Below are positions 11,775-18,168 of a stretch of DNA of 64,000 bases, piece by piece; position 1 is the stretch's first letter; every line of letters begins with the position of its first letter. Both the position numbers and the translations under genes were made by a program. The stretch is from assembly GCA_963748035.1 (NCBI GenBank), contig CAVVHO010000006.1:144176-208175 (forward strand), given 5' to 3'. The notes below the pieces were generated by a model that had not been told where the DNA came from, did not search any database, and saw only the letters and a program-made list of their open reading frames with translations. This stretch comes from an uncultured Gemmatimonadales bacterium (GTDB taxonomy: Bacteria > Gemmatimonadota > Gemmatimonadetes > Gemmatimonadales > GWC2-71-9).

Positions 11775-12742
11775 CGGCCCTGCTCGAGATCCGCGACTTG
11801 CGAGTGAGTTTCCCGGGGAAGACTGGCGCCATCAGCCCGGTGGATGGCCTGAGCCTCTCGATCGCGCGGGGCGAGACTCTCGCCCTGGTCGGCGAGTCCG
11901 GCGCCGGAAAGAGCCTCACCGCGCTCGCGGTGCTCCAGCTGTTGCCGCCGGCTGGGAGAATCGAGCCGCCCAGCGTGCTGCGCCTGGAGGCGACCGACCT
12001 GCTCGCCCTCAAGGGCGAAGCACTTCGCCGAATTCGGGGTCGCCGCATCGGGATGGTATTTCAGGACCCGATGACCAGTCTCAACCCCGTCCTGACCGTG
12101 GGTGACCAGATCAGTGAGACGATTCTGGCTCACTTCCCCCTGCCGCCACGGGAGGCCAGGCAGCGTGCCGAGGCCCTGCTGGTCGAGGTAGGCCTCGGGG
12201 ATGGGAGCGGACGGTACTCCAACTATCCCCACGAGTTGAGCGGCGGCATGCGACAGCGGGTCATGCTGGCGATCGCGCTGGCCGCCGAGCCCGAGCTGCT
12301 GATTGCCGACGAGCCGACGTCCGCGCTCGATGTGACCGTACAGGCCCAGATCCTGGAGCTGATCGACCGGTTACGCGCGGCCCATGGCATGGCCATGCTC
12401 CTGATCACCCATGACCTCGGAGTAGTCGCCGGCCGGGCCGACCGAGTCGCGGTGATGTACGCCGGTCGCATCGTCGAAGAGGCGCCGACGACTGAGTTGT
12501 TTCTGCACCCGGAACACCCCTACACCCAAGGGCTCTTCGCCTCGCTACCCCGGCTTCGAGGCAAGCGGATACCGCTCCGGCCGATTCCGGGCACCGTACC
12601 GGTACCGGGCCAGTGGCCCGCGGGATGTCGTTTCCATCCGCGCTGCCCCAAGATCATGCCCATCTGCACGACTGAACCACCAGAAGTGAGGCTGGGTCCG
12701 GCCCGAAGCATGCGCTGTTGGCTGGGAGTGAAGCCGTCGTGA
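11771..12742 (+). CDS. ABC transporter ATP-binding protein (DppD/OppD-like)
   Basis: ATG 11771 has an ATGA overlap with the permease stop. [14 protein letters not shown], Walker A GESGAGKS, signature LSGGMRQR, and the C-terminal oligopeptide-type CxxHPRCP motif. Confidence 0.9.
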
Positions 12743-12761
12743 GCGCACCGACCCGCTGCTG

Positions 12762-13718
12762 GTGGTTCGAGACCTGGTGAAGCACTACCACCGGCACGGG
12801 TTGCTGCGGCCGCGGGCGCCGGTCCGGGCGGTTGATGGGGTGTCATTTGAAGTGAGCCATGGGGAAACGCTGGCGCTGGTGGGAGAGACTGGATCGGGCA
12901 AATCCACCTTGGGGCGGACCGTCCTTCGGCTCGAACCCGCGACCAGCGGGTCAGTCGTATTTGAAGGTCAGGATATCTTGGCCCTGTCGCCCCGTCCACT
13001 GAGGGCGTTGCGACGCAAGATGCAGATCGTCTTTCAGGATCCTTCAGGCGCCCTCAACCCGCGCATGACGGTCGGAACGGCGATCGCGGAAGGATTGGAG
13101 ATTCATCGGCTGTTGCCCCGATCGGAAATCCCGGGGCGCGTCGCGTCATTGATGGAGGAGGTAGGGCTCGATCCGGTGGCAGCGAACCGGTACCCCCGCG
13201 AGTTCTCCGGCGGTCAGCGGCAGCGTGTGGGGATCGCGCGGGCGCTGGCGGTAGGGCCGACGTTCCTGGTACTCGACGAACCAGTGTCTGCTCTCGATGT
13301 GTCGGTACAGGCACAGGTTCTGAACCTGCTGCTGGATCTGCAGCAACGCCGCAACCTGGCTTTTCTCTTCATCGCGCATGATCTAGCCGTAGTGAGGCAG
13401 ATCGCGCACCGAGTGGCGGTGATGTATCTCGGCCGCATTGTCGAATGCGGCCCAACAGACGAGGTGCTGACCAAGCCGCGCCATCCGTATACGAAGGCTC
13501 TGCTCTCGGCGGCACCGGAGCCGGACCCAGGAAGCCCAAGAACCAGAATCCTGCTTCCCGGCGAGCCGCCCGATCCGTCACGCCCGCCGGCCGGGTGCCG
13601 TTTCCACCCTCGCTGCCCGCATCCGGAAAAAGACGACCGCTGTGTCACCCAGGAGCCACCGCTTCGCCCCCTGGGCCAAGTCGAGGTCGCCTGCCATTAC
13701 GCCGCCTCGGATGGCTGA
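12762..13718 (+). CDS. ABC transporter ATP-binding protein (DppF/OppF-like)
   Basis: 318 aa. Walker [10 protein letters not shown], signature [10 protein letters not shown]-terminal GCRFHPRCP. The start could instead be one of the CTG codons 3-6 nt upstream. Confidence 0.9.
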
Positions 13719-13931
13719 GACTCAAGCAAGCCAGTGTGCTGGCGTCCAGCGTTGAACCCATCCGTACGGCCCGCTTCAATTCCCCGTGTCCAAGCCAGTG
13801 TGGACAGATGTGTTCACGCGACGTGTCAGAGACACGACAGTGAATCCTCATTTCCGGCGCGCGCGTGCCATAACTCATTTTGCTACAATATGTTATGACG
13901 TCAAGCCGCTCCCGACACCTGCAGCTGCCAT

Positions 13932-13947
13932 CGGCATGGGTATTGCA
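13932..13947 (+). promoter_or_regulatory. Sigma-54 (-24/-12) promoter candidate
   Basis: cGGCATGggtaTTGCA against the consensus TGGCACG-N4-TTGCW. GG (13933-34) and GC (13945-46) have the canonical 12-nt offset, with one core mismatch. It lies 35 nt upstream of a small ORF and next to a sigma-54 activator gene. Confidence 0.6.
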
Positions 13948-13982
13948 CTTAGTGAGGACGACATCATTCAGGGGGTCGGTCC

Positions 13983-14069
13983 ATGCTCAAGGCGCTGTTC
14001 GTAATGATCGTGCTCAGCAATGACACCGCGGCCGCGCTTATCCAACGATTGCGACGGGCGACAACCTGA
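13983..14069 (+). CDS. Small ORF (28 aa, hydrophobic N-terminus); could instead be part of a small RNA
   Basis: ATG 13983 is preceded by GGGGG 7 nt upstream. Translation is MLKALFVMIVLSNDTAAALIQRLRRATT, with TGA at 14067-69. It is flanked by the sigma-54 promoter candidate and a clear terminator. It is too short for the ORF track. Confidence 0.3.
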   Translation: MLKALFVMIVLSNDTAAALIQRLRRATT

Positions 14070-14102
14070 AAGCCAGCCAGTCCTGGCGCGCACGATCTCG
14101 GC

Positions 14103-14133
14103 GGGGCGACCTTGTGGTCGCCCCGTTTTTGTT
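14103..14133 (+). terminator. Rho-independent terminator
   Basis: ggggcgacc-ttgt-ggtcgcccc followed by gtttttgtt. Confidence 0.7.
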
Positions 14134-14311
14134 GGCTCGAGTATCGGTAGCCTGCTCCACGATCCCTTGAACCCCTCTCAATAGAGCTCTCGAGCTCCCC
14201 TCGTTTCCAGCCGAGTTTGCAGCAGGCCGGTTGCCGCCTTCCGCAACCATTCCTGTTGCGAAAGCCTGCGCCGTGGTCTAGTGTTTCACCTTTCCCCTGG
14301 AGATCCTGCCG

Positions 14312-15052
14312 ATGACGACGACCCTGCAGGACTTGGCGTCGTCCCTCGCTTTCGAAGATCTGCTGATTCGCGCTGATCGAGCCACAGTAGTTGCCTCGCT
14401 ATCTCGCGGCATGGCCCACGACCTCCGCGGCCCCCTTCAGACGCTCACACTGCTTGCTGACCCACAAATTGAGGTATTTGGTGGCGCGGATAGCGCTCAC
14501 CTGCGCGTCGCAATCGGCAGAGCCGTGCAGCACCTGGCTGAGACCATCAACCGGTTCAGCCAGGTCTATGCTCCTCAGGAGTCGGAGGCCGCCCCCGTGA
14601 TCGTGGACGACCTGCTCGGCTACGGGACCGACCTCCAGCGCTATCAGCGCGGGCTACCAGTGGTGGAAGTCGAGCTCCGACTTCCCGGCGGCCTGCCGCC
14701 GGTTCGCGGGTTCGAGAGCCACCTCCTGCACGTGCTGCTGAGCCTGATTCTCAACGCCAAGGAAGCGATGGCCGAGCAGCGGGAACCGCGTATCGTCGTC
14801 GCGGCATCCGCTCGCGAGGGCGCGGTTCAGGTGATCGTGGAGGACAACGGATCGGGGTTGGAGGAGCCCACCCGCACGAAAGCCTTCGAGCCGTTCTTCT
14901 CGACTCGACAGGGTCACCTGGGAATTGGCCTGACCGTGGGACGTTCGCTGGTTGAACGGCAGGGAGGAACCCTGGAACTGGAACGGGCTCAGTCGGGTGG
15001 TGGACGGGCGGTGTTGCTACTCCCATCTTGGCGGCGCGGGACTCAGGGGTGA
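14312..15052 (+). CDS. Soluble sensor histidine kinase (HisKA + HATPase_c only)
   Basis: 246 aa. H-box SRGMAHDLRGPL, N-box LILNAKEAM, G-boxes EDNGSGL and GHLGIGL. No transmembrane or obvious sensor domain. Confidence 0.85.
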   Translation: MTTTLQDLASSLAFEDLLIRADRATVVASLSRGMAHDLRGPLQTLTLLADPQIEVFGGADSAHLRVAIGRAVQHLAETINRFSQVYAPQESEAAPVIVDDLLGYGTDLQRYQRGLPVVEVELRLPGGLPPVRGFESHLLHVLLSLILNAKEAMAEQREPRIVVAASAREGAVQVIVEDNGSGLEEPTRTKAFEPFFSTRQGHLGIGLTVGRSLVERQGGTLELERAQSGGGRAVLLLPSWRRGTQG

Positions 15053-15081
15053 GGCGGGCCTTTCTTTGGTGTAGTCTTGCC

Positions 15082-16512
15082 CTATGTGTCCATTGTGGCG
15101 GAGGCCTCGCGGGAGGCATTGAGTTTGTTGCGCAGGGTGCGCTCACTGATTCCGAGAAGCCTCGCCGCACGGGTGCGGTTCCCGCCCGTCGCCGCCAGGG
15201 CCCGCGCGATCGCCTGGCTGGCGAGCTCTTCCAGATTGTATGAGACGGTTGCGGCAGGTGCCGCAGAGCCGTTTCCCGTTCCGACCGCAGATGTGCTGGG
15301 ATTAGCCAAGCCGTCCCCGGCCCGAGCCAGGGGCCCGGTAGAGACCCCGTCGAGGATTCCCAGAAACACCTCGGGGCGAAGCACCCCGCCACGGGAGAGG
15401 ATCACCGCACGCTCGACCGCGTTGCAGAGCTCCCGGACATTGCCGGGCCAGGAGTGGCGCATCAGCAAATCGATAGTTTCGGAGGCGACGCTGCTGGCCG
15501 TCACGCCCATCTCCGCCGCCGCCCGCCGCGCAAAGTACTGCACAAGAACTGGGATATCTTCGACCCGCTCTCGGAGTGGCGGCGTCTTGATGGGCACGAC
15601 GTTCAGGCGATAGAAGAGGTCCGTGCGGAAACGGCCCGCGTCGACCTCGGCCTTGAGGTCTCGATTGGTGGTTGCGATGACCCGCACGTCCACCCGGATT
15701 GCCTGATGGCCACCCACCCGTTCAAATTCGTGCTCCTGGATCACCCGGAGGAGCTTGGCCTGAAGATCGAGCCGCATCTCCGAAATCTCATCCAGGAGCA
15801 ACGTCCCACCGTGGGCCCGCTCAAAGGCGCCGGCTGACCGGGCGGTGGCGCCGGTGAACGCGCCCTTCTCATGCCCGAACAGCGCGCTCTCGACCAGCCC
15901 TTCCGGCATCGCGGCGCAATTGATAGAAATGAACGGCCCGTCCCGCCGTGGGCTCTGGTCGTGCACGGCCCGCGCGAAGAGTTCCTTACCGGTGCCCGAC
16001 TCCCCTTCCAGCAACACGGTCGCCTTCGTGGGTGCCACCGTATCGATGATTTCCATGACCAGCCGGAACTGGGGACTATCGCCCACCAGTGCTTGGCTGG
16101 ATCGGAAACGGTTGATCTCCCGGCGGAACTGCTCGTTTTCACGCCGAAGCCGCACAACCTCGAGTGCCTGCGTCACGGCAATCTCGAGCGTCTCGGGACG
16201 AATGGGCTTGGTGAGATAGTCGATCGCACCAGACTTGATCGAAACAACGGCGTGTTCGATGCTGGAGTACCCGGTCATGATGATCACCGGGATCTGGTAC
16301 CCCTCCTTCTCCAGCACGGAGAGGAGGTCCAGGCCAGTGGCCTCGGGCATTCGGTAGTCGGCGATGATCAGATCGACGGGGGCTCGGGCGATGGTCCTGA
16401 GCGCCTCTTCCACGCTGGCCGCGAGGAGAGGCCTGTGTCCGATCTTGGAGAGATGGTGCTCAAGTACGACGCCGGTAGCCGGCTCGTCGTCTACACAAAG
16501 GATGGTTGCCAT
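15082..16512 (-). CDS. Sigma-54-dependent response regulator (NtrC family)
   Basis: 476 aa. Receiver domain (ILCVDDE...[10 protein letters not shown]), AAA+ domain with GESGTGKE and GAFTGA, and a C-terminal Fis-type HTH. Confidence 0.92.
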
Positions 16513-16823
16513 GGCCCCCCGGGGGCGGCTCCGCGGAACGCGACCAAGCGAGTGCCGTTCGGAACGGCAACCGGGTCCGCGGATCGTCCGGAACTCGCTC
16601 GTCTGCCTATCGTTGCGCCTCTACCTTCACGTAGCAATCTAGCCCTTGCGGTTGATATTGCCACCTTGTTCCAGGGTTCAACTTGAGAGTTGGGTAGTTG
16701 GTGACACGTGAAGTGCGAAATGCTGAGCGCCAAGTGGTATGACATGAGACTCGACAAAATTGTGCCCTTGGAGACCTGAACCCCTCCGTTGCCCGAGTCG
16801 CACCGTATTACTAGCCTTCCCCT

Positions 16824-17213
16824 ATGCCTCGCCAGAACATCTCCAGCGGCACACCTTGGGAACCGATTGTCGGGTATTCACGAGCCGTCCGCGTTGGCAA
16901 CGTAGTTCACGTCTCCGGCACCACCGCGACCGGTCCCGACGGGACGATTGTGGGCATCGGGGATGTCTATGCCCAGGCGGTTCAGGCTCTCAAGAACGTC
17001 GCCGCAGCCCTCCGTCAGGCAGGCGCGAGCCTCGAGGACGTCGTGCGCACGCGAACCTACGTCACCAACATTAGCCAGTGGGAAGCCATCGGCCGTGCGC
17101 ATGGTGAAGTATTCCGCGACATCCGCCCCGCCGCTACGATGGTGGAAGTGGTGCGTCTCATCGACCCGGCGATGCTAGTGGAGATTGAAGCCGAGGCGAT
17201 CGTTGAGGAGTGA
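16824..17213 (+). CDS. RidA/YjgF family protein
   Basis: 129 aa. [18 protein letters not shown]...VRTRTYV...EIEAEA is typical of RidA-like proteins. The stop TGA is the first unit of the following heptamer array. Confidence 0.88.
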
Positions 17214-17340
17214 GAAGTAAGGAGTGAGGAGTAAGGAGTGAGAAGTAAGAAGTGAGAAGTGAGGAGTAAGGAGTGAGAGGTGTGGGCGATGAGAAGTGCG
17301 AAGGGCCGTAGCTTTCTCACTTCTCACTTCTCACCTCTCA
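17209..17340. repeat. Heptamer array (GTGAGAA/GTGAGGA/GTAAGGA, about 10 units) with an inverted partner (TTCTCAC x about 4)
   Basis: 17209-17283 is the direct array. 17314-17340 (ttctcacttctcacttctcacctctca) is complementary to it. Confidence 0.9.
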
Positions 17341-17373
17341 TTGCTCGCCACACACTGCCACCGCACACAGCCC

Positions 17374-18168
17374 ATGCCCCAGCCCATCATTGTCGTAGAT
17401 GCCTTCGCCGACCGGCCCTTTGCCGGGAATCCGGCTGCCGTGTGCATCCTCCCCGGGCCCGCCCCCGATGAATGGATGCGCGACGTTGCGCGGGAGATGA
17501 ACCTGGCGGAAACCGCCTTTCTGCACCGAGTCGAGGACGGCTGGTCGCTCCGCTGGCTCACTCCGACGGTGGAGGTGGATCTCTGCGGCCACGCGACGCT
17601 GGCGAGCGCCCACGTTCTGTGGCAGGACGCGTACATTGGCCGCGACGCCGAGGCCCGTTTTCAGTCTCGCAGCGGGCTGCTCACGGCCCGAAGGGAGGGG
17701 GACCGCATCGTCCTCGACTTCCCCGCTAAGCCTGCCAAGGAAACGGCGCCGCCAGCTGACCTGCTCCGGTCCCTCGGGATCACCAAGGCACGTTGGGTCG
17801 GCATTAACGCCTTTGACTACCTCGTGGAAGTGGAGAGTGAAGCTGAAGTGCGCGGGCTGGCACCCGACCATTCCGCGCTCGCCAAACTCAAGGTTCGTGG
17901 CGCCATCGCGACCAGCCGAGCGGACAAGGGGCGGCCCTACGATTTCGTCTCGCGCTTCTTTGCCCCGGGCTCCGGAGTCAATGAAGATCCGGTGACCGGC
18001 TCCGCGCACTGCGCCCTGGCGCCATACTGGCAACCGGTCTTCGGGCGGGACGCGATGATAGGCTACCAGGCCTCGCCGCGCGGAGGCACAGTGCACGTGC
18101 GCTGCGACAAGGATCGGGTGCACCTCGGCGGCCAGGCGGTGACCGTCCTTCGAGGGATGCTGGCCTAG
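17374..18168 (+). CDS. PhzF family isomerase
   Basis: Starts at ATG 17374 (MPQPIIVVDAFADRPFAGNPAAVCIL) within track ORF 17296-18168. ETAF, CGHATLA and TGSAHC motifs are typical of PhzF-like proteins. Confidence 0.88.
   Translation: MPQPIIVVDAFADRPFAGNPAAVCILPGPAPDEWMRDVAREMNLAETAFLHRVEDGWSLRWLTPTVEVDLCGHATLASAHVLWQDAYIGRDAEARFQSRSGLLTARREGDRIVLDFPAKPAKETAPPADLLRSLGITKARWVGINAFDYLVEVESEAEVRGLAPDHSALAKLKVRGAIATSRADKGRPYDFVSRFFAPGSGVNEDPVTGSAHCALAPYWQPVFGRDAMIGYQASPRGGTVHVRCDKDRVHLGGQAVTVLRGMLA

Follow-up and report, generated by a model that had tools for sequence, protein, structure and literature searches.

Within a 64,000-nucleotide stretch of contig CAVVHO010000006.1 from an uncultured Gemmatimonadales bacterium (the window, whose first letter is position 1 for all coordinates given without a genome name), the interval at 13786-14133 appears to hold a complete and autonomous sigma-54-class gene for a helical small protein of 28 residues, a reading to which we would assign a probability of roughly 0.8. 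The unit is composed, in order, of a set of enhancer-like repeats, a palindrome, a -24/-12 promoter element, a Shine-Dalgarno sequence, a short open reading frame (ORF) and an intrinsic terminator. The argument for it is built from comparison with related genomes, in which these elements are conserved, the encoded peptide is under purifying selection, and the order of the surrounding genes records a history of deletion. An initial annotation, made from the letters of the window alone, had proposed a discrete promoter-ORF-terminator unit at this place, and it is indeed as a unit that the elements are conserved among the orthologous loci.

The ORF occupies 13983-14069 on the forward strand (28 codons, or 87 nucleotides including the stop codon) and translates, as had been read originally, to MLKALFVMIVLSNDTAAALIQRLRRATT. 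Matches to a profile of the peptide are present in 34 of the 39 genomes of an uncultured genus of Gemmatimonadaceae, 33 of them with one match and one with two, and among 201 genomes of the order the peptide was found beyond that genus only in one sister genus. The analyses of the promoter, the upstream region, the Shine-Dalgarno sequence, the terminator and the codons were all conducted on 34 distinct orthologous loci, and the corresponding 34 distinct gene sequences encode between 27 and 39 residues with the consensus MLKALFVMIVLSNDYAARLVQRFxRRxA, in which M1, K3, A4, L5, M8, S12, N13, A17 and R25 are invariant. Similarity to the DNA of relatives begins, in a DNA search, exactly at the ATG; variable sites amount to 17, 10 and 22 of 25 at the first, second and third codon positions, respectively; and the mean nonsynonymous (dN) and synonymous (dS) divergences are 0.21 and 1.09, with a dN/dS of 0.19. 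In a manual count over the first 21 codons, 9 of the differences between the window and the related genome G017 were synonymous and 1 was a replacement. The leader and trailer of the predicted transcript, by comparison, are unconserved across the loci except for the Shine-Dalgarno sequence and the terminator stem. Judged by this pattern of substitution, purifying selection acts on the ORF at the level of the protein; where the initial annotation had asked whether the small ORF or only an RNA structure would be conserved in relatives, the answer is that the ORF is conserved as a protein, together with the core of the promoter at all 34 loci.

Searches of Pfam and NCBIfam, at E values up to 10, assigned the peptide to no family, and a survey of the literature turned up no work on this peptide, nor any on small proteins that depend on sigma-54 in the phylum. 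An exhaustive profile search against 1.84 billion protein cluster representatives returned 25 matches, all of them to this same peptide; those representatives often carry a spurious N-terminal extension, and the peptide was never found within a larger protein. A search of the window genome by tblastn, using all variants of the peptide, recovered no second copy. Gene callers usually require at least 90 nucleotides, and the ORF, at 87, falls just under that limit; the gene is skipped by such programs because it is too short. On the evidence of these searches, the small-protein family is new, unannotated and restricted to one uncultured genus of soil bacteria and its sister genus.

Structural prediction by AlphaFold2, using a 33-residue orthologue and the family alignment, produced a single continuous helix across residues 2-29, with a predicted local distance difference test score of about 85 throughout the first 20 residues. 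Residues 1-12 are uniformly hydrophobic, with a hydrophobic run of approximately 11 residues, and the stretch from 14 to 28 makes up a cationic amphipathic helix whose hydrophobic moment, calculated for the consensus, is 0.70 and whose net charge is +3 to +4. Among 19-residue segments, the best gives an insertion sum on the Hessa scale of +5.6 to +8.5 kcal/mol, and any 19-residue membrane window would contain the invariant S12 and N13, as well as D/E14 and the nearly invariant R18. Because polar and charged residues would lie within any span and the insertion sum is unfavourable, the peptide is predicted to be a poor transmembrane candidate. A likeness to receiver domains, in their first strand and helix, was also considered, and was dropped as generic. 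If other bacterial small proteins are a guide, the peptide most probably exerts its effect by attaching to a larger protein or to a membrane surface. MgrB (which acts on PhoQ), PmrR and SafA are output peptides of two-component systems, each of fewer than 50 residues, that have their own promoters and terminators and bind larger proteins; unlike the peptide described here, they are expressed from sigma-70 promoters and possess genuine transmembrane helices, and they share no homology with it.

The -24/-12 element, CGGCATGggtaTTGCA, lies at 13932-13947 on the forward strand, precisely where it had been annotated, and has the correct GG-N10-GC spacing. When the orthologous loci are aligned, the GG and TTG of the element are invariant (34 of 34), the last base of the -12 part is C in 29 of the 34, and the element is always situated between 33 and 56 nucleotides 5' of the start codon. 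The genome from which the window derives encodes rpoN (on contig C5, with the RpoN box ARRTVAKYR) and approximately 16 enhancer-binding proteins with a Sigma54_activat domain. In sigma-54 promoters, transcription usually starts 11 to 13 nucleotides past the GC of the -12 part, a distance that would place the start at 13957-13959 on the forward strand, and from which we infer a 5' leader of about 25 nucleotides and a messenger RNA of approximately 175-180. The Shine-Dalgarno sequence, GGGGG at 13971-13975 on the same strand, precedes the ATG at 13983 by 7 nucleotides, its coordinates having been given correctly from the outset; a sequence of the GGAGG type is present no more than 18 nucleotides from the start codon at all 34 loci, and reads GGAGG in most relatives. 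The terminator that was originally described as strong proves to be a GC-rich hairpin of 12 pairs (14100-14127) followed by a run of T, the whole extending over 14100-14133 on the forward strand; each of the 34 loci has a GC-rich hairpin beyond the stop codon, its stem varying in sequence by lineage while its pairing is kept.

Upstream of the promoter, GTGTC/GACAC half-sites form a distal cluster at 13786-13843 that resembles an enhancer, corresponding to positions of about -115 to -172 relative to the predicted start. Its half-sites are GTGTCC (13786-13791), GTGGACA (13800-13806), GTGTTC (13810-13815) and GTGTCAGAGACACGACAGTG (13824-13843). The motif GTGTCC is the best-conserved upstream block, and in most loci it stands 134-146 nucleotides 5' of the -24 element; with at most one mismatch allowed, GTGTCC-N5-GGACAC occurs as a full palindrome at 10 of the 34 loci against an expectation of 0.13. 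A second form of the distal block, which is the one present in the window, contains the 24-mer CGACGTGTCAGAGACACGACAGTG; this 24-mer is identical in G017 in spite of diverged flanking sequence, and is unique in the window genome, where its nearest look-alike sits in a region that has no -24/-12 element. Because the enhancer is unique in that genome, the sharing of a motif points to no particular activator. A search for other promoters bearing GTGTCC-N5-GGACAC, by which a regulon might have been traced, met with no good copy other than that of the small gene across the 64 kb of the island region in the flagellated relative G032.

A second conserved block lies nearer to the promoter, in the form of an IHF-like dyad, CATAAC-N17-GTTATG, at 13869-13897, with its center at approximately -75. 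The initial annotation had named this dyad, along with the short palindrome TGACGTCA at 13896-13903, as a possible activator or IHF-type site; the dyad is both present and conserved, in the manner of a protein-binding site, while the short palindrome is present and not conserved. The same annotation had called the upstream stretch the most AT-rich of the window, and in this it was mistaken, since the stretch ranks third at a scale of 40 nucleotides and fifth at 100-200. The general form of the dyad, TAAG-N3-TTG-N5-CAA-N3-CTTA, emerges as a conserved block from the 34-locus alignment, and a weight matrix derived from it recovers 79 sites in the genome that score at least 16 bits, compared with about 2.6 expected from shuffled sequence (further examples being G000 C3:719572, C6:98095, C1:573561 and C5:239087). 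A -24/-12 element is found within 110 nucleotides of 17 of these 79 sites (22%), compared with 2.5% of random positions, a nine-fold difference, and the gap from palindrome to downstream element is typically about 15 nucleotides. The copy in the window scores 27.9 bits and is the second best in the genome, although it belonged to the training set. The IHF consensus is WATCARNNNNTTR (PMC3045617); each half of the palindrome carries CAA-N4-TTA, which forms part of that consensus, and the WAT part is mismatched in the window. That the dyad is the site of one specific activator was considered and rejected, in view of its 79 genomic copies and its enrichment at many -24/-12 elements, which point instead to a general architectural protein. 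The palindrome is thus a candidate site for what is probably a general, homodimeric, IHF/HU-like bending protein that would serve sigma-54 promoters throughout the family, the homodimeric state being suggested because the site is palindromic. In G032 the palindrome also precedes the -24/-12 candidates of three flagellar operons (on the flgF, fliL/fliM and flgB sides, at G032:C3:1574992, 1585546 and 1598093, reverse strand), an arrangement which suggests that the flagellar middle genes of the genus may be sigma-54-dependent.

Taken in order, these elements are compatible with a simple scheme, from which we infer how the promoter may be used, what kinds of protein may bind to it and how its product may come to be translated and to act. 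An enhancer-binding protein would occupy the TGTC/GACA repeats some 115-170 nucleotides upstream; a homodimeric IHF/HU-like protein would bend the DNA at the palindrome near -75; sigma-54 RNA polymerase bound at 13932-13947 would then be opened, with transcription starting near 13958; and the resulting message of about 175 nucleotides, ending at the hairpin at 14100-14133, would be translated from the ATG at 13983.

Several observations weigh against this reading. Within the 64 kb of the window, two-mismatch matches to the sigma-54 consensus employed (TGGCACG-N4-TTGCW) number 5 where 9.4 would be expected, so that the proposed near-consensus site lies within chance when the window alone is consulted; the promoter is credible because it is conserved across the orthologous loci. 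Homology gives no indication of what the peptide does. In the sister genus (loci L089-L092, L094 and L099) the -12 part reads TTGT rather than TTGC. The window copy itself departs from its relatives in three places, having C rather than T as the first promoter base (CGGCAT at -24), a Shine-Dalgarno sequence, GGGGG, that is weaker than their GGAGG, and alanine at position 18, where arginine is nearly invariant elsewhere; together these differences may reflect some relaxation of the unit in the window genome. The sister genus has also lost one half of the distal palindrome, and its type of promoter may have been switched; its ORF has 33 codons, and a manual count over the first 22 of them, between L089 and L090, gave 4 synonymous changes to 1 replacement.

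The genomic surroundings of the small gene differ greatly between species. In flagellated relatives, it is located at the joint between a chemotaxis cluster and a flagellar cluster. The order in G032 begins with oppF, the cheA, cheW, cheB and cheR genes with receptor genes, the small gene and a convergent HDOD gene; continues with motA, motB, a response regulator gene (HD_5), a kinase gene, and convergent csrA and flgK; and ends with about 30 kb of flagellar genes as far as fliG, fliF and fliE, a hybrid PAS kinase gene and the gene for an NtrC-type activator. The kinase gene is thus about 4 kb, and the activator gene about 35 kb, from the small gene in such genomes. The distance from oppF to the small gene, which in G032 is filled by che genes and genes for methyl-accepting chemotaxis proteins, is 27-31 kb in G032, G021 and G094 and 17 kb in G019, and phzF lies 14-20 kb past the activator gene in G032, G021 and G094. 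In the window the order is simply oppF, small gene, kinase, activator, ridA and phzF, with oppF at 12762-13718 and the ridA and phzF-like genes at 16824-18168, all on the forward strand, forming the left and right flanks of the deleted island. (Between ridA and the phzF-like gene, heptamer-type repeats at 17225-17350 yield spurious hits to Rfam microRNA families.) Searches of the window genome for motA, motB, flgK, csrA and the HDOD gene found none of them, nor does that genome contain flagellar genes or an orthologue of the hybrid PAS kinase. The slot at 13718-16824 of the window corresponds to G032:C3:1532473-1622310 and to equivalent regions on G021:C18 and G094:C1, and because three genes alone separate its two flanks and the motility genes are missing, the comparison indicates that the window genome has lost a chemotaxis and flagellar island of about 85 kb, keeping only three of its genes.

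Further relics of the same island are distributed among the other species. Beside the small gene, G008, G016 and G035 keep the kinase and the activator; G007 and G013 keep the kinase, csrA and the activator (the kinase of G013 being degraded); G017 keeps the HDOD gene only; G034 keeps nothing; and the sister genus keeps csrA only. In G004 the small gene is alone and inverted. The small gene itself is retained at every one of these loci. The G004 copy (G004:C139, locus L103:6242-6316) is turned around with respect to oppF and ridA and retains its own -24/-12 element and terminator, from which it follows that the unit moves as a whole. Gene order across these genomes indicates that the small gene belonged ancestrally to the joint where the chemotaxis cluster meets the flagellar one, and since the gene is under purifying selection in species that have no flagellum, its role cannot be strictly flagellar.

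The two genes that accompany it in the window were described in the initial annotation as an orphan kinase and sigma-54 activator pair. The genes were correctly recognized, but the two are left over from the deleted motility island and are not an ordinary orphan pair. The kinase (14312-15052, forward strand, 246 residues) comprises DHp and catalytic domains, with a HATPase_c match, an H-box read from the translation as MAHDLRGPL and no sensor domain recognized by Pfam; its core is most similar to those of AtoS and ZraS. Its orthologues in flagellated relatives, which close a string of genes formed by motA, motB, the HD_5 response regulator and the histidine kinase, are 57-68% identical to it, with two outliers at 47-48%. 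Apparent in-frame stops in kinase orthologues were examined and discounted, since they proved to be the codon that terminates the preceding gene. The NtrC-family activator (15082-16512, reverse strand, convergent with the kinase gene) has REC, Sigma54_activat and HTH_8 domains, and its orthologues in G019, G032 and G094, which sit next to fliF-fliE at a distance of about 35 kb on the downstream side of the small gene, are 80-85% identical; in G021 and G012 the matches are partial or interrupted by stops, in the same position within the island. In G012, which is flagellated, the orthologue (G012:C1:261829-263256) is 67% identical when read across four TGA codons that lie in frame; it is perhaps a pseudogene, or the stops may come from faulty assembly. 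The activator is the sole enhancer-binding protein inside the motility island of the relatives. FlgS/FlgR, FleS/FleR, FlrB/FlrC and FlbD are flagellar sigma-54 two-component systems, and the situation in the relatives resembles the FlgS/FlgR type, in that a sensor-less kinase (after motAB and the HD_5 regulator) and an activator (beside fliF-fliE) lie within a flagellar cluster in which three operons have -24/-12 candidates. Unlike those systems, the pair in the window persists in a genome that has no flagellar gene. Its activator reaches 386 bits with the FlbD model and 314 with that of FlgR, short of the cut-off in both cases, and the AtoC and NtrC models score higher.

Other explanations of the unit itself have been considered. 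That it makes a non-coding regulatory RNA, with an incidental ORF, as the initial annotation had suggested by offering a small RNA as one of its products, is extremely improbable. Its size, its own promoter and its terminator do resemble those of the sigma-54-dependent small RNAs GlmY and NrsZ (PMC3045617, PMC4253122), the second of which is a small RpoN-dependent transcript of Pseudomonas aeruginosa that is induced by a two-component system of the NtrB/NtrC type (PMC4253122); NrsZ, however, is non-coding, belongs to a different phylum and has no sequence relation to the small gene. The idea was rejected on the strength of the coding pattern of substitutions and of the conservation of the start codon, stop codon and Shine-Dalgarno sequence in a predicted transcript whose ends are otherwise not conserved, and a search of Rfam over 12000-17500, at a permissive threshold, found no relevant family (the best hit having E = 6). 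A membrane-active product, which had been put forward at the same time, would in its strongest form be a type I toxin inserted into the membrane or some other pore former. A short peptide with a hydrophobic N-terminus, a basic C-terminus and a single predicted helix would be in keeping with this, but the hydrophobic run is too brief, the polar and charged residues and the Hessa sum described above tell against insertion, and nearly every genome has one copy of the gene, in a syntenic position. Furthermore, the sole sigma-70-like hit in the vicinity (reverse strand, 13904-13877) is upstream of the ORF and directed away from it, and so is not an antisense promoter, although the scan cannot exclude one; on these grounds a toxin is very unlikely. 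It is somewhat less improbable, but still unlikely, that the unit is a decaying and disused relic in the window genome. The disappearance of the surrounding island and the three departures of the window copy from its relatives would fit such decay, but the ORF, the promoter core, the palindrome (with the score and the caveat already given) and the terminator are all intact, the changes that separate its first 21 codons from those of G017 are nearly all synonymous, and other lineages without the island retain the gene.

A further question is whether the small gene is controlled by its neighbours, as the initial annotation had suggested in naming it as possibly the dedicated target of the adjacent two-component system. 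On such a model, the kinase would phosphorylate the activator, which would bind the upstream repeats and fire the promoter, and the peptide might feed back on the kinase. The two genes are kept beside the small gene in three lineages that have no island (G000; G008, G016 and G035; G007 and G013), and they are present or absent together across the genus, with the exceptions of the degraded kinase in G013 and of incomplete assemblies. Kinases with cores of the AtoS/ZraS type pair with sigma-54 activators, and the activator is unrivalled within the island. The closest known layout is that of glmY/glmZ and GlrK/GlrR (QseE/QseF) in Enterobacteriaceae, in which glmY precedes glrK and glrR, GlrR recognizes sites of the form TGTC-N10-GACA, and IHF is required (PMC3045617, PMC6075780, PMC8745638). 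Like glmY, the unit in the window is short and stands alone, combines putative activator repeats of TGTC...GACA form, an IHF-like block on the promoter side of them, a sigma-54 promoter and a terminator, and is situated directly upstream of a locus for a kinase and an NtrC-type regulator; unlike glmY, which is non-coding, it encodes a conserved peptide, and the spacing of its repeats is N7 in the palindromic form, as opposed to N10 for GlrR. More importantly, control by the neighbouring regulator has been demonstrated for glmY, and is here contradicted by genomes that keep the unit and have no such regulator. G017, G034 and G004 (97%, 90% and 93% complete, respectively) contain neither orthologue and yet preserve an intact ORF and the GG/TTGC core of the promoter, with -24/-12 scores of 14.7, 11.3 and 7.5 bits, the last of which is weak. 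In addition, G017 retains the 24-nucleotide enhancer block of the window and G034 a recognizable variant of it, these three genomes still encode between 11 and 16 other activators, and the two forms of the enhancer do not follow the presence of the activator. In the flagellated relatives, moreover, the kinase belongs to the string that begins with motA and motB, while the activator comes with a hybrid PAS kinase of its own, so the pairing in the window may be a secondary juxtaposition, and GTGTCC was not found at the three candidate promoters of flagellar operons in the island of G032. A dedicated output of the adjacent pair is consequently a doubtful description of the gene, one that the comparison does not support, and the neighbouring activator is a tentative candidate for the protein that fires the promoter, with the odds against it. 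A more elaborate version, in which kinase, island activator and peptide constitute a minimal three-gene module that was derived from flagellar control and has outlived the flagellum, with the peptide as its sole remaining output and perhaps acting back on the kinase, is more speculative and correspondingly less probable.

The gene is missed by standard annotation, and public protein sets hold its product sporadically, often in a falsely N-extended form. Its regulatory region is unusually legible, in that enhancer, bending site, -24/-12 element, ribosome-binding site and terminator can all be read from it, and the related species offer a natural deletion series, in which the island is whole in some and reduced to differing relics in others, the small gene being always kept and the kinase and activator being kept or lost jointly. 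If the three-gene module were real, it would be the first sigma-54-dependent small-protein regulator, and would represent the re-use of a flagellar checkpoint circuit. Seen more soberly, the gene adds one more small protein and no new principle, its interest arising mainly from its survival through repeated loss of the island around it. In either case, it provides a target for learning what role a sigma-54-controlled small protein may play in a phylum that has almost no genetics.

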